A stretch of 64,000 nt of DNA from Candidatus Bathyarchaeia archaeon. GTDB taxonomy: Archaea; Thermoproteota; Bathyarchaeia; Bathyarchaeales; Bathycorpusculaceae. Both the position numbers and the translations under genes were made by a program. The notes beneath the pieces were generated by a model. The model worked only from the letters and a program-made list of their open reading frames with translations. It was not told where the DNA came from and did no database searches. Below, one piece after another: positions 1,076 to 16,584 of the stretch (position 1 is its first letter; each line of letters begins with the position of its first letter). Where the stretch lies: assembly GCA_038883795.1 (NCBI GenBank), contig JAVZLK010000004.1:32001-96000 (forward strand), given 5' to 3'.

Positions 1076-2924
1076 CAGTTTCTGCTTCACAGATTTTGAT
1101 GGAAGATTCCGCGCTAGGCTGGCAGCCGTCATACCAAGGTTTTTTGCTGCTGCTGAAGAGACTAAGCTTGCTGGCACAAGCGCTCGCTATCAATGTCGAA
1201 TTAAGGTTGAGTATCAGAAGGATTTGATGGGCCTTTTGGAAGAGGGCATGCTTTTGGCTGTTAAGAATTTCAAGCAGTGTGGAGAAGGCGAAGAACGTTT
1301 TACGCTTATGGAGATTAGCCGTGTTTGGCCTGAACATTTTGGTTTGAGGGGTTTGTCTGATCATGGTTATTATCCTATGCAGTTTGAGATTATTGAGCAG
1401 TCTGAGGAGGATTGGCAGACTGACGATAGGTCTACGATGATGGTTCAGATAGATGCCATACCAATAAATTATGATTTGATTGTTAATAGAAAATGTGAGT
1501 TTGAGTTTGTTAAAGGCTTCTCCTACCCAGTTGTGGGCAGCCCAGCCTATCTTTTAAACGGCGAAATGATAAATCGCATGTATAACCAGAAAATCGCTGA
1601 AAAGTTGGGAATAGACCCATCCAAAACTGTCAGTGACGCCCGTGCGGACCCGAGGCTTGGTTTAATAAAAATGTTTCAGGCAAGTGAAACTATAATTCCA
1701 ATTTATGTAGATTTTGAGAAGCTTGTGCGCTACCATTTCGGCGTTTTCGCCTTCACGGGCGGTGGAAAAAGCAATTTGATGTCGAATATTTTGAGAAGAT
1801 TATTGTATCATACTGAGCAAACGAAGGTTGTGGTTTTTGACATAAGCTGCGAATACGTTTTCCTTTTACTTGACATTTTAACGGATCCAGCGATTTCTGC
1901 GAAGGTTATTATGGAAAATAGGATAGATTCGTTAGAGCAATTTTTCAATTCTGTTGTTAAACCACGAGAGTACGAGACTGACGAGCGGATTAAGAAGGGA
2001 CTTAAATGTATAATGGACCAAGGCAGACTTTTCTATTACAAAAGACCACGGGGGAAGGTTCCAACTTACAGCGAGTTTATGGAAGAGCTGAGCGACCAAA
2101 GGAAGGGTTCTGCTGACAAGCCAAATTACATGAATGCCATTGACGAGATTCGTGATGCCATATTAGAGTATATTGAAGAGCATGGGCTTATGGAAAATCA
2201 GGAAGTCAGCGAAGACTTTGTTAAATATATAGACGAAATATCGAGAGCCAAAGTGGAGGAGTTTAAGGTTCACGAAAAAAGCGGTTTGTATGCTTGGGCA
2301 ACAACGCGGAGCATGCTTTTGGATAGGATAAAAAGGCGCAATGAAAGGGAAGAGAAGGAAACGGGCGGATTAGCCATAGAAAAAATTCGGGAGTTGCTTG
2401 AAGACAAAACAACGAGGCTTATTTGCATCTCAATTTCGGACCCATTCACGATAAAGGATTTGGTGATAACGCTTACGCAGGATTTGCTTGTTAGGAGAAA
2501 ACGCAAATTCCAAGTTAAACCATACATCCTCCTCGTTTTCGATGAAGCACAAGAATTCATACCAAGCGGAGGCTCTGGCATCGATGCCAAATGTTCTGGG
2601 CATGTGGAAACCTTGCTAAGGCAAGGACGCAAATACGGCTTAGGCGTTTGCATCGCCACGCAACGCATAGCCTACTTGAATACGAATGCCCTACAACAGC
2701 TTCACACATATTTTGTTGGCACTTTGCCAAGACCATACGACCGCCAACTTGTAAGCGAAACTTTTATGATAGATAAGGGCATCTTAGAGAAAACTTTGGA
2801 GTTTGCGCCTGGCGAATGGCTATTGTCAAGTTATATAGCGACTGGAATGGAGAACGTGCCAATATTCATAAAGGCGGACAACGCAGAAAACGAAATAGAA
2901 AAATATCTTAAATCAAACGCTTAA
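1047..2924 (+). CDS. HerA-like/FtsK-family ATPase (DUF87)
   Basis: Walker A AFTGGGKS, Walker B LLVFDEAQ, RQGRKYGLGVCIATQR motif, N-terminal HAS-barrel-like region. Confidence 0.85.
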   Translation: MKRQEENNFNSFCFTDFDGRFRARLAAVIPRFFAAAEETKLAGTSARYQCRIKVEYQKDLMGLLEEGMLLAVKNFKQCGEGEERFTLMEISRVWPEHFGLRGLSDHGYYPMQFEIIEQSEEDWQTDDRSTMMVQIDAIPINYDLIVNRKCEFEFVKGFSYPVVGSPAYLLNGEMINRMYNQKIAEKLGIDPSKTVSDARADPRLGLIKMFQASETIIPIYVDFEKLVRYHFGVFAFTGGGKSNLMSNILRRLLYHTEQTKVVVFDISCEYVFLLLDILTDPAISAKVIMENRIDSLEQFFNSVVKPREYETDERIKKGLKCIMDQGRLFYYKRPRGKVPTYSEFMEELSDQRKGSADKPNYMNAIDEIRDAILEYIEEHGLMENQEVSEDFVKYIDEISRAKVEEFKVHEKSGLYAWATTRSMLLDRIKRRNEREEKETGGLAIEKIRELLEDKTTRLICISISDPFTIKDLVITLTQDLLVRRKRKFQVKPYILLVFDEAQEFIPSGGSGIDAKCSGHVETLLRQGRKYGLGVCIATQRIAYLNTNALQQLHTYFVGTLPRPYDRQLVSETFMIDKGILEKTLEFAPGEWLLSSYIATGMENVPIFIKADNAENEIEKYLKSNA

Positions 2925-2929
2925 AATTT

Positions 2930-3724
2930 TCAGGTTCTTATGGAGAGATACGTCTTATATGATTTGAAGCCTACTTTTGAATATGCACGTATGGCTGGGG
3001 CGTTATCTGCTATTACATAGATTATTGCTATTGGAGATCTTTTGAAAATTTTTTGGACAAGAGCAGACACGATAGATGTAGCGTAACCTCTATTTCTGTA
3101 ATGTTCATCAGTGGCTACAACTCCAATTAGGCTTGCAAAATCCACGAATCGAGCATTGCCAACAGAAACCAGTCTACCTTCTTTTCTTATGCCAAGCCAG
3201 AAAACGTTTTGCCATCTCTGCTTCAACTGTTCTGCATTAGTTTCGCCCCACCACTCAGGATCGCATCGTCTCATTAATGCTGCAACTTCCTCAGCGTCTT
3301 CAACATTTAGCCTTATGGGAGTTTCAGTTATTTGAATGCGCTCGTCTCCGCGGTTCAAGCACATCAGCACCATGTTCTCTTTAACGCGTGGCTTAAATTT
3401 CTGACAAATGACATCTTCGCAGTCTGGTGGCGCCTGCAATTCAACCTTCTCAAGATTAGCATATTCAAGTAACTTCTGCACAGCTTCCCGACTGCCTCTA
3501 AACTGGACAATATAATCAGAAAAAATTAGCAGCAAACCTAATACTTCCCTTCTCTCCACTGCCAGAAATATCTTTGTCTGTTCCCTACGTTGAGTCCAAT
3601 CAAGTATGAAAAAATAGTAATCTAACTGGTCGCGGTTTACATATTCCCAGAACGTCTGCTCGTAACCTTCAGTCACAGAAACAATTTTCATAAATACAGT
3701 CTCCGAACAGGTAATAAGGCGCAA
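2930..3724 (-). CDS. GNAT family N-acetyltransferase
   Basis: VATDEHYRNRGYAT acetyl-CoA-binding motif; NAPAIRAYSKVGF. Confidence 0.85.
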   Translation of the reverse strand: MRLITCSETVFMKIVSVTEGYEQTFWEYVNRDQLDYYFFILDWTQRREQTKIFLAVERREVLGLLLIFSDYIVQFRGSREAVQKLLEYANLEKVELQAPPDCEDVICQKFKPRVKENMVLMCLNRGDERIQITETPIRLNVEDAEEVAALMRRCDPEWWGETNAEQLKQRWQNVFWLGIRKEGRLVSVGNARFVDFASLIGVVATDEHYRNRGYATSIVSALVQKIFKRSPIAIIYVIADNAPAIRAYSKVGFKSYKTYLSIRT

Positions 3725-9640: not shown

Positions 9641-10114
9641 CTAAAACTGTTGAAGAACATCTCGCTTCTCCATAATATACCCACAATAATGACACTTCAA
9701 AATAAGCGGCTCTTCACTTTCAACATAAAATTTAGCCACAACAGGTTCATTACTATTGCTTATACAAGCAGGATTAGCACATTTAATAATGTCCTCAATA
9801 ACCTTTGGCAACTGAACCCTTTGTTTAGCCACAACATTATAATCACGGATAATGTTAATTGTGGCGTGGGGCGCCAACAAGGCAATTTTATGCACTTCTT
9901 GGGGGTTTAATTCCCTGCCCTCAATCTTGACAATATCCTTAACTTTAAAACGCTTACTTGGAACATTAATGGCAATTGTAATAATGCCCTTCTCTCTTCC
10001 AGTTATTCCCAAAATTCTAGCCACATCTAAGGCGTGACCGCCAGTTATATGGTCAATAACAGTGCCATCCTTAATTTTTGAAACGTGCAGCATCGTATCG
10101 CTCATGCGTACCAT
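9641..10114 (-). CDS. pyrI: Aspartate carbamoyltransferase regulatory subunit
   Basis: IKDGTVIDHI, KDIVKIE, CANPACIS, CHYC. Confidence 0.97.
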   Translation of the reverse strand: MVRMSDTMLHVSKIKDGTVIDHITGGHALDVARILGITGREKGIITIAINVPSKRFKVKDIVKIEGRELNPQEVHKIALLAPHATINIIRDYNVVAKQRVQLPKVIEDIIKCANPACISNSNEPVVAKFYVESEEPLILKCHYCGYIMEKRDVLQQF

Positions 10115-10199: not shown

Positions 10200-11147
<948 letters not shown>

Positions 11148-11156
11148 CATTCGAAA

Positions 11157-13370
11157 TTAGACTGATGCAAAACGGTCAAAGGACGTCAGTGTGTCTATTG
11201 CTCCACATGATGGGCATTTATGCAAAAGTCCGAACCAGCTTCTTTTGCAGTTGAAGCAATAAGTCAGTTTGCAGTCATAAGTGAAAAATTCAATGCTGTA
11301 ACCCTCGAAAATTTGTTTGGTTAAAGCCATAAGCTCTTCAGGTTTATGTTCAGCATCTCCAAGCTCTATTATCGTTAAGCTTCCACCAGAATAAAGCCTC
11401 TGCATTTCCTGTTCAAATCTTAAGGCTTCTGGACTAATTTTTCCATCACTTAATGTTAGTTTGCTGACTGTTGAATAGTATGGTTTTTCCCTTGTTCCCG
11501 AGAATCGAATTTTCGCTACGCCGAATCTTTCAATGTCTAATCTTGCCAACCTTTCGGAAGCTTCAAAATCGGGTAATTTCGCTGGGACTAAGTTTTTTTC
11601 GCGTCTTCTGTCAATTTTGTGTGTATAATCCAAAATGTTTTGCATAATTTCTCTGGTAAAATCAAATGTTCTTTCATCTTCGCCAACATTTTTTCGGCAA
11701 AAGGCTTCGATTGTTTCTTTTAATCCTGCCAAATTTATTATGCAAGAACAGTTCTCATTTCTAAAATATCGGTCACCATTAATGTTTTGCAGTAGAAATG
11801 GAAGCAAACCTTTACCATGCTGTTTAATGGATTTATGCTTGATTTCTAAAGCCCGCGATGCCAAATCAAGCCTCTCTTTTAACGTCTGAAAGAATTTTGC
11901 CTTATCCCCTTCGCTTTCATATGCAATGCGTGGCAAATTAAGAGTTACATGGGCTAATTTTCCCGTGCGCAAAGTATCTATTTCCCAATCCCCATCCAAA
12001 CTCGCCCCTAGCCTAAATCCAGAGGCGGAGAAAACACTTTGCCTTTCCTCTTCTTTTAGGAGATTAGCAAAATAGGGTATTCCCCTTTCTGAAGCCAGTT
12101 GATGCGCCTTAAAAATTATGGCCTCCGCTTTCTCGTCTGCGAAGGCTTCTGGGCGTATTTTCAGAATAAGTTTTGGATTAAGTAAGGGCTTACTTGCGCT
12201 TTCTTCAATAAATATGTCGAGGAGAAGGGAAGCCAAATTTTGACTTTCCTCAAAGAAATCTCGATAATTACCCGCTAATTTTCCAGAGACTCCCACAGCT
12301 GGCTTGTTTGCAATAAAACCTGGAAGCGTCGGCTCAAGGCTTATGGAAACGTTCGCATGCTGATTTAGATTAATAATGAATAAGCGTAAAGCTTCCTTAA
12401 CCTCTGAAGCGCCTAAGCCTTTTACAAAGGGAGCGAGAAAAACATTAAAATACTCAAGGGTTTGCGTTTCGCATATTTCCTTGGACGAATGCAAAAGAAC
12501 ATTAAAAATGAGGGAAAGGGCTGTTTCCAAATTTTTAGGAGGAGGGAAAGAAAATTGAGAAGCATTTATTTTCTCTAATTTCAAGCCATTCTGGAAGAAA
12601 AATCTCAAATCATGCACAATCTCGCTTGGCTTCAAAATCCAAGAACCAAGCCCACTTATGTGCATTGAACCGGACAAGTGGGCGTCTGCAATATCCCTTG
12701 GAAAAACGTTTAGAAGCGTAAACTCTTTTAAAACAATGTCGCCAGCCGTTTCATGAATGTAAACCGGCCACTGGGGAGTTTTACTTTTCAAGTCGACAAG
12801 GGCTGCAACGTCATAGACTGGAAGCCCCAGCCTTGTGAGTTTGTGACGGTAATCTTCCAAGCCTTTTTCAATCAAAATTGCGTTTACAACCTCCCTCACA
12901 AGGGGCGCCGTCAAATACTTGGGCTTTGACTTAAGCAGCCTTTTTTCTGCTTCTTTGGCAACCTTTTGCGCCAAATCAGCAGGCATCTTCGTCTCTCTTA
13001 TGAGCGAATTAGCTATTTTGCTAACATCAAACTCCTCAAGTGTGAATTTGGAAGTGCGGACAAGCATGCTTCTGGGCTTGAAGGCTCTCTTTTCAATTCG
13101 CTCCGCCACCTCAATAACCATCTCGCCCAAATCCGTTAAACAATACTTTTTTGCTTCCACGTCTGCCTCAATCAAATCCGCCTTCAACAAAAACTTCAAG
13201 TGATAAGCAAACCTTCCAGCATCCCTTGTGGGGTTCATCTTCAAAGAACCCATCAACTCAGTATAGGAAAGGGGACCCCTATCAAAAAGCAAATTCAAAA
13301 TCTGTAGCCTAACTGGTGAAGAAACAGCTTTGAGTATCCTAACTCCCCGCACACGATGTGGAACAGACAA
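11157..13370 (-). CDS. ArsR-like wHTH + ATP-cone + degenerate class III ribonucleotide reductase (NrdD-like) fusion protein
   Basis: N-terminal SSPVRLQILNLL..LSYTELM..FAYHLKFL HTH; ATP-cone VRTS..EEFD..YLTAPLVRE; NrdD-core motifs TRLGLPVYD, HDLRFF, GIPYF, TLNLPRIAYE, RLARLD; C-terminal CxxC..CxxC; no RxxGY motif. Confidence 0.85.
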   Translation of the reverse strand: MSVPHRVRGVRILKAVSSPVRLQILNLLFDRGPLSYTELMGSLKMNPTRDAGRFAYHLKFLLKADLIEADVEAKKYCLTDLGEMVIEVAERIEKRAFKPRSMLVRTSKFTLEEFDVSKIANSLIRETKMPADLAQKVAKEAEKRLLKSKPKYLTAPLVREVVNAILIEKGLEDYRHKLTRLGLPVYDVAALVDLKSKTPQWPVYIHETAGDIVLKEFTLLNVFPRDIADAHLSGSMHISGLGSWILKPSEIVHDLRFFFQNGLKLEKINASQFSFPPPKNLETALSLIFNVLLHSSKEICETQTLEYFNVFLAPFVKGLGASEVKEALRLFIINLNQHANVSISLEPTLPGFIANKPAVGVSGKLAGNYRDFFEESQNLASLLLDIFIEESASKPLLNPKLILKIRPEAFADEKAEAIIFKAHQLASERGIPYFANLLKEEERQSVFSASGFRLGASLDGDWEIDTLRTGKLAHVTLNLPRIAYESEGDKAKFFQTLKERLDLASRALEIKHKSIKQHGKGLLPFLLQNINGDRYFRNENCSCIINLAGLKETIEAFCRKNVGEDERTFDFTREIMQNILDYTHKIDRRREKNLVPAKLPDFEASERLARLDIERFGVAKIRFSGTREKPYYSTVSKLTLSDGKISPEALRFEQEMQRLYSGGSLTIIELGDAEHKPEELMALTKQIFEGYSIEFFTYDCKLTYCFNCKRSWFGLLHKCPSCGAIDTLTSFDRFASV

Positions 13371-13475
13371 AGGCTCAGCCTCCAGCCCGGTAAAGGCAAT
13401 TAGCGAAATAAGGGTTTAAAAGGTAAGAACACTTTATCCTTATATGCTTTTCAATCACTAAAAATCTTAAAGAGG

Positions 13476-13553
13476 GGGGCTGTCGGCTAGCTTGGTCTAG
13501 GCTTGGAGACTCGGGCTCTCTAGACCCCGGTTCAAATCCGGGCAGCCCCACCA
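13476..13553 (+). tRNA. tRNA-Pro(CGG), CCA encoded
   Basis: Acceptor GGGGCTG/CAGCCCC-A-CCA, anticodon loop CT-CGG-GC, GGTTCAAATCC. Confidence 0.95.
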
Positions 13554-13563
13554 AGCTTTGAGT

Positions 13564-15516
13564 TTAAACCTCTGAAAGAGGGAGCAAGGTCAAAATTCTG
13601 AAGGCTGTTCCTCCAAATAGGATGGCGAAGGTTATCTCGAAAATTGTTATGTATACTGCTTTTTTCCATCCGAACTCTTTGGTTAAGGCTGCAATTGTTG
13701 ATATGCATGGTATGTAAAACATGGCTACCAGTGTGAAAACAACCATTTGGACGGGTCCGAATCCTGGAATTTCTGCGAAATTTGTTGTTCCAAAAAGCGT
13801 TGCAAGCATGATTAACGTTAATTCTTTCCTTAAAACGCCAAAAATTAATGTTATTCCCGTAATTGCGGGCAGTCCAAGCCATGCGACTGTTATGGGGCTT
13901 AACAAGTTTGCGATTGGCTCAAGTAAACCCAATATTTCGATAAGTTTTATGGTGATGCTTCCAACAATTATTATTGGAAAAGCTATTTTTATGAACTCAG
14001 CCAGCCTAAACCATGCTTGCTTTAAAATTGTCTTTAAATGGGGCAGTCGGTAATCAGACATTTCCATAATTAGGGCTGTGGGTTCGCCTGGCAATGCTTT
14101 AAATGCGAGTCTTCCAAGGATGAAGATTATGGCTAGGTTGAAAATGTAAAGGGCTAATGCGTATTGAACTCCTAAATATGTGCCAACTAAACCGAGGATT
14201 ATGACTGTGCGGGCTGCGCATGGAACAAGCGTTGTTACAAAGGCTGCGAGAAGTCTTTCCCTTTGGGTTTCCATTATTCTACATCCCAAACAGGCGGGAA
14301 CGTTGCATCCATAACCGAGAATTAGCGGGATGAAGGCTTTTCCATGCAGTCCCATTTTGTGCATTATGTTGTCCATTAAGAAGGCGATTCGGCTCAGGTA
14401 GCCCGAATCTTCAAGGAAGTATAGTATAATGTAAAATGGGACTATGTAGGGCAGTGCTATTGTGACGCCAGCAAGGATGCCTTCCAAAGCGCTCCAAACT
14501 ATTTTCCCAAAAATTTCTGTTCCAAAAAAGCTTTCAAAAGCGGGTCTCCAGTTGTAAAATAAATTGTTTAATGCATCTGAGGTGTATCCTCCGAAGGTGA
14601 AAATTGAATAGAATATTAAGAGCAGCGAGAAAGCCATTATTGGGTATCCCATGACCTTATGGGTTGTAATGTTGTGAAGTTGCTCCCCAAACTTTGGCTT
14701 TATTGGAGAAACCAGTTTTTGGGCTTCTCTGGCGATGCAGCCAGCAATTTCGTAACGCTCCGAAGTTATCACCGTTGAGCAAGAATGTCCATGAAGCTTT
14801 TCGATTTCTTTTGCAAGTTTTTTGGCTGCAGAAACTATTTTTGGATTAACTTTCGCGACTTCCCTCTCTATTTCTTCGTCTCCTTCCAGCAATTTGATTG
14901 CTACATATCTTGGCGGATACCAAAATTGGATGGGTTCAACCATTTTTGTGAGTTCGGCTATTTTCTTTTCAACCTCTTCCCCAAACCTCACTGGAACACG
15001 ATTTGCCGCTAATCCTTTTTCAGCCACTTCTATTGCTTTTTCTAAAAGTTGAAAGACGCCAACCCCTTTTATGGCAACGGTTGGGATGACTGGTATTCCT
15101 AAAAGCTTCTCCAGTTTTTCCACATCTATTTGAATTCCTTTTCTCTTTGCCATATCCATTTGATTTAATGCTATAACCATAGGGGTTTCCAATTCCATAA
15201 GCTGCAGCGTAAAGTAGAGGTTTCTTTCAAGAACCGAAGCATCCACAACATTTATTACAACATCTGGTTTTTCCACAGCAATATATTTTCTTGAAATCAA
15301 CTCTTCTAGGGAATAGGTTGAAAGCGAATAAATTCCGGGCAAATCAATAATGTCTATAGTGTAGCCCTTAAAGTGAAGCGTGCCCTCCGCTTTTTCAACA
15401 GTTTTTCCAGGCCAATTGCCAATATGCTGATGCAAACCAGTTAGGTAGTTGAATATGACGGATTTTCCAACATTGGCGTTTCCAGCCAAAGCAATGAGCA
15501 GTTTCTTCTTAGCCAT
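13564..15516 (-). CDS. feoB: Ferrous iron transport protein B
   Basis: GNANVGKS, GNWPGKTVE, DLPG, LEDSGYLSR, GYGCNVPA, FYIPC. Confidence 0.96.
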   Translation of the reverse strand: MAKKKLLIALAGNANVGKSVIFNYLTGLHQHIGNWPGKTVEKAEGTLHFKGYTIDIIDLPGIYSLSTYSLEELISRKYIAVEKPDVVINVVDASVLERNLYFTLQLMELETPMVIALNQMDMAKRKGIQIDVEKLEKLLGIPVIPTVAIKGVGVFQLLEKAIEVAEKGLAANRVPVRFGEEVEKKIAELTKMVEPIQFWYPPRYVAIKLLEGDEEIEREVAKVNPKIVSAAKKLAKEIEKLHGHSCSTVITSERYEIAGCIAREAQKLVSPIKPKFGEQLHNITTHKVMGYPIMAFSLLLIFYSIFTFGGYTSDALNNLFYNWRPAFESFFGTEIFGKIVWSALEGILAGVTIALPYIVPFYIILYFLEDSGYLSRIAFLMDNIMHKMGLHGKAFIPLILGYGCNVPACLGCRIMETQRERLLAAFVTTLVPCAARTVIILGLVGTYLGVQYALALYIFNLAIIFILGRLAFKALPGEPTALIMEMSDYRLPHLKTILKQAWFRLAEFIKIAFPIIIVGSITIKLIEILGLLEPIANLLSPITVAWLGLPAITGITLIFGVLRKELTLIMLATLFGTTNFAEIPGFGPVQMVVFTLVAMFYIPCISTIAALTKEFGWKKAVYITIFEITFAILFGGTAFRILTLLPLSEV

Positions 15517-15792
15517 TTACCGTTCTATCTCCACGAGAATTTTCTCTGCCATGCCTCTGCCAATGGCAAGCCTTGAGCCTCTCACAAGAATTTCTAACGG
15601 TCCATGGAAAGGGGCTGATTTTACTACGGTTACTTTTGTGCCCGGAGTTAAACCCATGTCCATGAGTCGCTTTTCAAATCCCCATCTTCCACGTCCTCTT
15701 CCCCTTCCTCTGCCGTGTCCTGCCTTTACAGAAGTAACTATTCCAGTCTCTCCATCCTTCAGTGCGGTCAATGGAACTTCCCGTTTTTCCAT
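15517..15792 (-). CDS. feoA: Ferrous iron transport protein A with Gly-Arg repeat insert
   Basis: KRLMDMGLTPG..APFHGP..GSRLAIGRG; abuts feoB; start set at ATG 15792. Confidence 0.9.
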   Translation of the reverse strand: MEKREVPLTALKDGETGIVTSVKAGHGRGRGRGRGRWGFEKRLMDMGLTPGTKVTVVKSAPFHGPLEILVRGSRLAIGRGMAEKILVEIER

Positions 15793-15806
15793 AAAATCAC
15801 AACCTT

Positions 15807-16478
15807 TCATTTTAACTGTTTAACTTGGATGACCGAGGCGACTTGACGACTTATTGCATGGCGATTTGAACCCACCTTTACGGTGATTGGGCCACTCATG
15901 GGAGCTTTATCCAAAATCTCTATGGAGGCTCCGGGCACAAGACCCAGCTTACCCAAATATTGAAGCAATTCCACATGTTCTTCTGTTATTTTCACTATCG
16001 TTCCTTTCCTTCCTGTGGCAAAATCGGTTAGAGGCAGCGATTTTTCTTCTATTATTCCACCGCATGCTGTGGGTATGGGGTTTCCGTGGGGACAGGTTTT
16101 TGGATGTTTAAGCGCTTTCTCTAAAGGTTTGATTATTTCCTTTGTTATGCCATGTTCCAACTTGCAAGCTGCATCGTGAACCTTCTCCCATTCTATATGG
16201 AGGATGTCCACAAGCAAACGTTCCGATAAGCGATGCCTTCTTATAACTTGTAAGGCTATTTTTCTACCCTTTTCCGTAAGCTTAACGCCTTTGTAAGGTG
16301 AATGCGTCAAAAATCCTTCCTTTTCGAGGCGTTCCACAGTGTTTGTAACTGTTCCAGGCACAACCCCAAGCATTTTAACGATATCACTGGTTCTGGCGGC
16401 TCCGCTCTTTTCCTCCAGCCTATAAATACATTCGAGATATTCTTCTGTGGCTGCTGTGATTTCTTCGTTTTCAGACAT
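15807..16478 (-). CDS. DtxR/IdeR/MntR-family metal-dependent regulator with C-terminal FeoA domain
   Basis: EEYLECIY, RRHRLSERLL, ACKLEH, CPHGNPIP; start set at ATG 16478. Confidence 0.93.
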   Translation of the reverse strand: MSENEEITAATEEYLECIYRLEEKSGAARTSDIVKMLGVVPGTVTNTVERLEKEGFLTHSPYKGVKLTEKGRKIALQVIRRHRLSERLLVDILHIEWEKVHDAACKLEHGITKEIIKPLEKALKHPKTCPHGNPIPTACGGIIEEKSLPLTDFATGRKGTIVKITEEHVELLQYLGKLGLVPGASIEILDKAPMSGPITVKVGSNRHAISRQVASVIQVKQLK

Positions 16479-16495
16479 TTTACGAGCTCTCCAAA

Positions 16496-16549
16496 TTAAA
16501 ATTACGAGAAGTCGTATTTTAACTTTCTCAAAGCATAAATCTTTTATGC
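16496..16549. promoter_or_regulatory. Two inverted repeats in the divergent promoter region; candidate DtxR-family operators
   Basis: TTAAAA-T-TACGA-gaag-TCGTA-TTTTAA (16496-16522) and GCATAAA-tct-TTTATGC (16533-16549). Confidence 0.45.
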
Positions 16550-16584
16550 GGTCGCCAAAAAACATTCAATTCGAGGAAAATTTT

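Follow-up and report, generated by a model that had tools for sequence, protein, structure and literature searches.

NrdR, the bacterial repressor specific to ribonucleotide reductase (RNR) genes, joins a DNA-binding-type module directly to an ATP-cone within about 150 aa, and its gene often lies beside nrd genes; passages in PMC9110341 describe it as rare in archaea. We analyzed a window of 64,000 nt from Candidatus Bathyarchaeia archaeon (GCA_038883795.1; JAVZLK010000004.1, positions 32,001–96,000) that holds a gene for a winged helix-turn-helix (wHTH), an ATP-cone, a class III RNR (NrdD) barrel without catalytic residues and a Zn ribbon, hereafter the dead-NrdD protein. Our analysis revealed that the protein has lost its radical residues, shows an uneven pattern of constraint, belongs to a single, widely distributed clade and is linked in the genome to nucleotide-metabolism genes. 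Its mode of action most likely resembles that of NrdR, although it does not belong to the NrdR family. Both proteins join a DNA-binding-type module directly to an ATP-cone, and same-strand nrdJ or nrdD accompanies the dead-NrdD gene in 16 of 54 loci, which were taken at about one per genus from 24 families. In contrast to NrdR, whose module is a Zn ribbon, the dead-NrdD protein has a winged helix; its cone is of the archaeal NrdD type (VRTS) and not of the NrdR type, about 540 aa of dead reductase follow the cone, and the protein coexists with a true NrdR in its host.

Two further groups of proteins resemble the dead-NrdD protein. Sequence comparison clearly points to the archaeal NrdDs with a VRTS cone (L104, L142, L147, P0171 and P0207) as the parent subclass; these enzymes have the same cone, linker, barrel fold and Zn ribbon. 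Relative to archaeal NrdD, the dead-NrdD protein lacks the flap, both Cys residues, the PAE motif and the Gly-Tyr pair, and it has an extra N-terminal wHTH. The topology of this wHTH (α1-α2-α3-αR-wing-α5) is also that of the ArsR/SmtB regulators (Pfam HTH_5, HTH_20). Unlike these, it has no Cys in the α3 region, and the effector part would be the ATP-cone with the dead enzyme. No metal-sensing site is visible where we take the ArsR-type site to lie.

The gene is a single open frame of 737 codons that starts with TTG, 8 nt behind a GGAGG. The wHTH and the ATP-cone in the original prediction proved to be real. Pfam HTH_5 matched residues 18–68 (26.5 bits; cut-off 22), the archaeal wHTH family DUF7347 matched residues 13–87 (30.0 bits; cut-off 27.6), and the ATP-cone profile (PF03477) matched residues 102–174, directly after the DNA-binding-type domain (29.6 bits; cut-off 25.8). 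Pfam NRDD (PF13597) covered residues 204–727 with 256.7 bits over profile positions 11–532 of 562, and the NCBIfam NrdD equivalog (TIGR02487) gave 264.6 bits, under its cut-off of 326.35. The same domains recurred in 57 chosen relatives: NRDD and DUF7347 in all 57, the ATP-cone in 56, HTH_20 in 50 and HTH_5 in 33. An AlphaFold2 model based on a 57-sequence alignment (mean predicted local distance difference test score 90.3; predicted template modeling score 0.81) displayed the wHTH, cone and barrel, with the winged helix composed of α1 (5–15), α2 (19–31), α3 (36–42), the recognition helix (51–63), the wing (67–78) and α5 (80–96). Foldseek returned class III RNRs as the top matches of the barrel (E values of 5e-27 to 6e-18; template modeling score on the target 0.60–0.77), and other glycyl-radical enzymes followed far behind at about 1e-8. 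A complex prediction for two copies of residues 1–100 scored 0.02 against a mark of 0.42; it was run without controls and counts neither way on dimerization of the wHTH. On the sequence evidence we regard it as confirmed that the protein is a full-length derivative of class III NrdD that has lost the radical chemistry and gained a DNA-binding-type domain.

The loss of radical chemistry was read from alignments with the true NrdD of the host genome, with 11 true NrdDs and 69 wHTH-bearing relatives, and with solved NrdDs; the roles of Cys171, Cys416 and the NxN flap follow Prevotella copri NrdD (PcNrdD) as described in parts of PMC11226230. The thiyl Cys (PcNrdD Cys416) is replaced by F452, while the next Arg (R453) is kept; the Cys-Arg/Lys pair of the finger loop occurred in 11/11 true NrdDs and in 0/69 relatives. 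The second Cys, in the first barrel strand (PcNrdD Cys171), is replaced by E250. Cys stood at this column in all 11 true NrdDs and in none of the 69 relatives, four of which have a Cys within three columns of it. The substrate-bridging PAE motif has become PDF. The NxN substrate flap is gone; active archaeal NrdDs show KENANLQ-NPET right behind the linker, and the EN.N motif was present in 7/11 true NrdDs versus 1/69 relatives. The four Cys residues of the Zn ribbon are retained together in 58 of the 69 relatives and are invariant in the 57-member alignment.

The C-terminal end required a correction. The original prediction held that the protein stops before the Gly motif; instead, it ends inside a vestige of the radical loop, where R-F-A-S-V aligns to R-x-x-G-Y and S736 and V737 occupy the positions of the radical Gly and the Tyr. 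Gly at the radical column was retained in 11 of the 69 relatives and was followed by Tyr or Phe in one (P0170), which is without the Cys-Arg pair. Tails of at least 20 residues resembling the glycyl-radical domain remain in 28/69 relatives, and 37/69 are short like the window protein. The other strings quoted in that prediction (SASGFRL, KPSEIVHDLR, CETQ, PDFE, CFNC...CPSC and TSFDRFASV) are all in the translation. Its statement that no nrdG lies nearby also agrees with our search: no NrdG-like match was found on the window's contig, and the only one over the cut-off in the host is on another contig (C11), beside the true nrdD. The proposal that an intact gene has undergone targeted loss of its radical chemistry is borne out by the absence of both Cys residues and the Gly and by the selection described below. 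It had named homologs with RxxGY and the catalytic Cys residues as the finding that would speak against it; the relatives proved otherwise, with the Cys-Arg/Lys pair of the finger loop and the second Cys each in 0/69 and Gly followed by Tyr/Phe in 1/69.

The ratio of nonsynonymous to synonymous divergence (dN/dS) was determined against the two closest orthologs with unsaturated synonymous divergence, L014 (dS 0.48) and L013 (dS 0.87). For these two, respectively, it was 0.086 and 0.103 over the whole gene, 0.024 and 0.087 in the wHTH, 0.029 and 0.036 in the ATP-cone, and 0.108 and 0.128 in the barrel. The check suggested with the original prediction therefore gave about 0.09–0.10 overall and the lowest values in the wHTH and cone, as for a gene that is selected and not decaying. 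In the 57-member alignment, whose relatives are 25–47% identical to the window protein, the columns conserved to at least 90% made up 31% of the cone, 15% of the Zn ribbon, 14% of the wHTH and 3% of the barrel. The wHTH has four invariant positions (L28, H57, Y76 and G82), and G52, F54, Y56 and L58 of the recognition helix are near-invariant. Invariant positions in the cone are V104, R105, F114, I119, L123, E126, R159 and L166, followed by R180, G182 and P184 in the linker; in the barrel D229, H231, G234, N478, P480, R481, E552, R607, D612, Y632 and G663 are near-invariant. Constraint on the protein is strongest in the N-terminal winged helix and the ATP-cone.

The convergence on pyrB noted in the original prediction is real and not accidental. 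The end of pyrB lies 9 bp from the stop of the dead-NrdD gene, and pyrB was adjacent and convergent in 78 of the best 80 Bathyarchaeia loci; pyrI was present in 27 of these 80. Because feoA, feoB and dtxR, which form an unrelated cluster on the upstream side in the window, were each kept in only 1/80 related loci, the link to pyrB is not mere synteny. The dead-NrdD gene has its own upstream region of 105 bp, common with a divergent tRNA-Pro(CGG) gene, and the same tRNA end stands upstream of the gene in many of 30 Bathyarchaeia loci compared.

Across the 54 loci, neighbors were identified by tblastn and Pfam. Pfam was applied to 56 of 65 neighbor open reading frames (ORFs), and the remaining nine are from L114, L116 and L143, which are represented by scanned relatives of their families. 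The class II RNR gene nrdJ lies directly downstream on the same strand, at 207–457 bp, in 12/54 loci (8/8 of Nitrosopumilaceae and 4/4 of family f7). Full-length nrdD is the same-strand downstream gene in four loci, three confirmed by Pfam (one with a glutaredoxin gene in between) and L138 by tblastn only. The dCTP deaminase gene dcd lies directly downstream on the same strand in two, and pyrB/pyrI are convergent directly downstream at 60–189 bp in 18 and nearby in three more. Altogether 37/54 loci have a nucleotide-metabolism neighbor, which in every case lies downstream. That the family adjoins nrdJ, nrdD and dcd strengthens the idea of a regulator. The coordinates of the window features are collected in Table 1.

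Table 1. Features of the dead-NrdD gene and its neighbors (window positions).
Feature	Position	Strand	Basis
Whole gene: wHTH, ATP-cone, dead NrdD barrel and Zn ribbon, 737 aa	11157..13370	-	ORF list, Pfam, NCBIfam, AlphaFold2
ArsR/SmtB-type winged helix-turn-helix, residues 5–96	13083..13358	-	Pfam, model secondary structure, conservation, dN/dS
ATP-cone, residues 102–178, variant V104-R105-T106-S107 replacing V-x-K-R	12837..13067	-	Pfam, column counts
Linker, residues 179–204: conserved TRLGLPVYDV, then site of the (absent) NxN flap	12759..12836	-	Alignment with active NrdDs
NrdD-type 10-stranded barrel without catalytic residues, residues 205–690	11301..12758	-	Pfam NRDD, Foldseek
E250, replacing the second catalytic Cys (PcNrdD Cys171)	12621..12623	-	Alignment
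Former finger loop, residues 445–458 (SVFSASGFRLGASL); F452 for the thiyl-radical Cys, R453 kept	11997..12038	-	Alignment
Zn ribbon, C705, C708, C719 and C722	11205..11258	-	Alignment
Vestige of the glycyl-radical loop, residues 730–737 (SFDRFASV), then stop codon; S736 at the radical Gly position	11160..11183	-	Alignment
pyrB, aspartate carbamoyltransferase catalytic chain, convergent	10215..11147	+	TIGR00670, 402.6 bits (cut-off 237)
pyrI, aspartate carbamoyltransferase regulatory chain, divergent from pyrB	9641..10114	-	TIGR00240, 185.1 bits
Promoter region shared with divergent tRNA-Pro: TTTAAAC 13414–13420, GGAGG 13379–13383	13371..13475	.	Sequence, conservation across Bathyarchaeia loci
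tRNA-Pro(CGG), divergent from the dead-NrdD gene	13476–13553		
dtxR-type iron repressor, feoA and feoB, in a row upstream of the tRNA	13564–16565	-	

Two side observations concern the carbamoyltransferase genes. In the window, pyrI and pyrB are transcribed divergently from a shared region of 100 bp and do not form a pyrBI operon; across Bathyarchaeia loci the promoters carry the conserved blocks AAGTTATTTAG (pyrB) and ATCTTTTAT (pyrI). In f28 and f23, the short members of the dead-NrdD family form a divergent pair with the gene for ornithine carbamoyltransferase (L148, 440–1369; L151, about 2303–3244; TIGR00658 over cut-off), a second carbamoyl-phosphate-using enzyme linked to the family beside aspartate carbamoyltransferase (ATCase).

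The family is large and widely distributed. Among the matches listed by a word-indexed search, 120 homologs were 65–91% identical to the window protein, nearly all of about 730–737 aa and with the same domain set; the named ones are from Bathyarchaeota and are annotated as “anaerobic ribonucleoside-triphosphate reductase” or “ArsR family transcriptional regulator”. An exhaustive search of representatives gave 2083 matches, with full-length relatives at 30–47% identity in the top ranks. Reference genomes held at least 599 loci, and 77 of the best 80 were titled Bathyarchaeota, Bathyarchaeia or Bathycorpusculum. The sole named title from outside Bathyarchaeia in these 80 was L088, a metagenome-assembled genome labeled Methanocella sp. 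whose family member is 54% identical; this may be a binning or labeling error. The family profile matched in 351 of 401 sampled genomes of the phylum, some of which have a true NrdD only. All 56 genomes of f15 matched, 51 of them once; f15 is Nitrosopumilaceae, since the close homologs of its protein are named Candidatus Nitrosotenuis and similar. Among clusters of distant members, of which 1 of 10 and 5 of 10 carried names in two look-ups, the named ones came from Nitrososphaerales, Thermoprotei and four groups of Asgard archaea (Jordarchaeia/Freyarchaeota, Promethearchaeota, Helarchaeota and Baldrarchaeota).

A tree built on the barrel columns (99 rows; quick search in IQ-TREE) was evaluated by the SH-aLRT branch test only. 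A single branch (support 99) unites 67 of the 69 wHTH proteins with six N-terminally shorter calls and contains no true NrdD; the wHTH rows P0218 and P0225 are placed elsewhere. True NrdDs do not fall on one side of any single branch, and no rooting is claimed. The family is essentially one clade and reaches across Bathyarchaeia, ammonia-oxidizing Nitrososphaerales, Thermoprotei and Asgard archaea. In four families, shorter relatives (529–662 aa) match over the wHTH, cone and linker at E values of 1e-83 to 1e-105, with the barrel weak or unmatched, which points to the N-terminal module as the probable functional core. Because active archaeal NrdDs carry both the cone and the linker, these are not inventions of the family. 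The simplest history would be that an archaeal NrdD was duplicated and that one copy gained the wHTH and lost the flap, the Cys residues and the Gly; in some lines the tail, as in the window protein, or much of the barrel would have been lost later. No published account of the architecture was found in the main texts of the open literature or in two RNR family surveys, and the family is apparently undescribed.

Two further groups of NrdD-like proteins were seen in this comparison. P0209, P0223, P0225, P0242, P0246, P0197, P0200, P0210, P0238, P0258 and P0266 lack a Zn ribbon or glycyl-radical tail, although P0200 retains the ribbon; most of the set are without the thiyl Cys, and their place is among true NrdDs, outside the wHTH clade. 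They may be further, independent dead-NrdD lineages. P0166, P0168, P0179, P0208, P0211, P0215 and others are true NrdDs of 1000–1700 aa that match in 2–4 separate stretches, as would be expected if inteins are present.

Taken together, we consider it probable, with moderate confidence, that the dead-NrdD protein descends from an archaeal class III RNR, has no catalytic function and regulates nucleotide metabolism, most likely as a transcription factor. The winged helix would bind DNA; an adenine nucleotide, or a phosphorylated ligand related to it, would bind to the cone, which would report the nucleotide state. The dead barrel and Zn ribbon would form a dimeric platform against which the cone moves, switching DNA binding on or off; this idea is drawn from the repositioning of the cone in active NrdDs, as described in parts of PMC12662201. 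Likely targets in the host would be pyrB/pyrI, by linkage, and perhaps nrdJ, since nrdD-nrdG has its own NrdR.

The cone gives a mixed picture of ligand binding. Its signature is V-R-T-S in place of the canonical V-x-K-R, with T106 in 48/57 and S107 in 54/57 relatives. Fixed basic residues are R105, K/R118, R159 and R180, each in 57/57, and R175 in 56/57; with these the cone could bind phosphates although it lacks the canonical Lys-Arg. ATP and dATP are putative ligands of the cone. The VRTS-type cone and the linker YR-K-TRLGLPV-DV are also found in the active archaeal NrdDs named above, among which L147 scored 506 bits on the NrdD equivalog. The original prediction had assigned the sensing of deoxynucleoside triphosphates to the RNR nucleotide sites as well, and this part is unsupported: the 57-member alignment has no conserved columns in the specificity-site/loop-2 region, the family profile left the stretch with PcNrdD Glu290, Asn298 and loop 2 unaligned, and the substrate flap is gone.

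The host has a full set of genuine RNR genes, which answers the call for a survey of separate intact NrdD or NrdJ. Contig C11 carries a complete nrdR-nrdD-nrdG operon of bacterial style (L001, 701–3955). Its NrdR combines Zn_ribbon_NrdR (PF22811; 60.8 bits) with a canonical cone, its NrdD (668.9 bits over the full profile) has MCCRL, RVVGY and a canonical VRKRDG cone, and its NrdG scored 193.7 bits. The palindrome ACACTATATATAGTGT lies upstream of the operon and looks like what we take to be an NrdR box. The class II RNR gene is on contig C9 (L011), where a small rubredoxin-like ORF (CxxC...CxxC) directly precedes it. NrdR over the cut-off was present in 5/61 Bathyarchaeia genomes (all four of the window's family and one other), and in none of five genomes, closed or nearly so, from four families outside the class. 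Because NrdR is over the cut-off in only 5/61 genomes of the class, lateral acquisition of the nrdR-nrdD-nrdG operon by the host is suggested.

Possible operators were searched in 54 upstream and same-strand downstream intergenic regions as palindromes with half-sites of 4–6 nt and spacers of 0–12, with 266 other intergenic regions of the same loci as controls, counted per family. NrdR boxes tied to the dead-NrdD family were not found in this search. Alignments showed blocks conserved within single lineages. Eight ammonia-oxidizer loci (L093, L105, L107–L111 and L146) share GGTGTCAA-N-AA-NN-TTGA at about 45 nt ahead of the TATA box of nrdJ, and AGTCAYAAGTCTTATTTAC at the dead-NrdD gene's own promoter; both are candidate regulatory elements that the sequences do not allow us to assign to the dead-NrdD protein. 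In two of four f7 loci, CTACATTTTTGTAG precedes nrdJ. In two read runs flagged as probably DNA, short contigs covered the gene patchily at a depth like that of pyrB and feoB, with an approximately 80-fold peak in the tRNA bin, and a third RNA run gave one 200-nt contig; these reads are compatible with transcription and do not show it. One raw-read RNA run had zero reads anywhere on the 6.1-kb stretch and hence is no test of expression.

Several observations weigh against a transcription factor of this kind. The host has a genuine NrdR with an NrdR-box-like palindrome at nrdD-nrdG. No operator common across families was found in the palindrome search; only AT-rich words recurred, and they were equally frequent in the controls. 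The Bathyarchaeia promoters align with conserved blocks like the TATA box and B recognition element only. The pyr genes are convergent and so have no promoter in common with the dead-NrdD gene, and 17/54 loci are without an adjoining nucleotide-metabolism gene. The canonical Lys-Arg pair is missing from the cone, which has Thr-Ser instead, and the same type of cone sits in active NrdDs. Lastly, purifying selection continues to act on the barrel (dN/dS about 0.12), and the role of a mere scaffold accounts for this only loosely.

An alternative that we regard as unlikely is regulation at the protein level and not through DNA. The dead barrel or cone would bind NrdJ, NrdD or ATCase and tune its activity, and the winged helix would be a protein-contact or autoregulatory module. 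This would suit the promoter-less, convergent and conserved pairing with pyrB/pyrI (78/80 and 18/54 loci), the purifying selection on the barrel (dN/dS 0.11–0.13) and the dimerization of RNR barrels described in parts of PMC11226230. However, the recognition helix (G52, F54, Y56, H57 and L58) is among the most invariant parts, and some lineages erode the barrel yet keep the wHTH and cone. Pairing with NrdD is also not general. In the five closed or near-closed genomes of ammonia-oxidizing Nitrososphaerales, no true NrdD was over the cut-off, and the sole match was the dead-NrdD gene at 51–74 bits; therefore the hetero-oligomerization with a true NrdD that the original prediction had offered as a second option is not the general role of the protein.

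A trigger enzyme is a less probable explanation still. The barrel would have a new, non-radical activity, or its former active site would take up a nucleotide-like metabolite, with coupling to expression through the wHTH; this accords with a constrained barrel and its handful of near-invariant residues. However, the motifs that hold these residues (AH.SG.IHI, NLPR, RLA..D, GL.E, Y and GG) are also in the aligned true NrdDs; they thus look like residues of the fold and not of a new site. In addition, the substrate-holding flap, the loop-2 region and the PAE motif are unconserved, and the barrel degenerates in some lineages.

We consider it very improbable that the protein is a class III reductase that still works by using other residues or a partner for radical chemistry. 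The intact fold and Zn ribbon and the Gly at the radical column in 11/69 relatives are in keeping with it, but none of the 69 has the Cys-Arg pair of the finger loop or the second Cys at the aligned column, the window protein ends one residue past the former Gly position, aerobic ammonia oxidizers carry the gene beside a class II RNR, and the window's contig has no NrdG-like match. A decaying paralog or an assembly or truncation artifact of an NrdD gene, to which only the shorter C-terminus would point, has a negligible likelihood, since more than 100 homologs (65–91% identity) have the same length and end, at least 599 loci are known and the spread covers the TACK and Asgard archaea; pseudogene or artifact is ruled out by the dN/dS of about 0.09–0.10 and the wide, same-length family.

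Returning to the transcription factor as the preferred reading, the original prediction is upheld in part. Its targeted loss of chemistry, its wHTH and cone and its link to pyrB stand; dNTP sensing by the RNR sites is unsupported, and pairing with NrdD is not the general role. The protein would be an archaeal analog of NrdR in its mode of action, and it does not replace NrdR in a host that has its own. A broader proposal is tentative, and we hold it with some doubt: the dead-reductase transcription factor may be the ancestral master switch by which archaea control the supply of DNA precursors and pyrimidines. It would be common to the TACK and Asgard lineages, universal in ammonia oxidizers of sea and soil, and in most of these lineages would do the job of NrdR, with its fossil body as an allosteric platform that turns the nucleotide state of the cone into DNA binding.

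For the control of RNR genes in archaea, the dead-NrdD family would be a concrete, testable candidate regulator. Cultured ammonia oxidizers carry the dead-NrdD gene directly upstream of their only RNR, and Asgard archaea have the gene too. Hundreds of genomes label the family as “anaerobic ribonucleoside-triphosphate reductase”, and this mislabel can mislead on anaerobic dNTP synthesis, for example in aerobic ammonia oxidizers. If the proposed function is true, the family would strikingly show how a whole radical enzyme can be recycled into a regulator.

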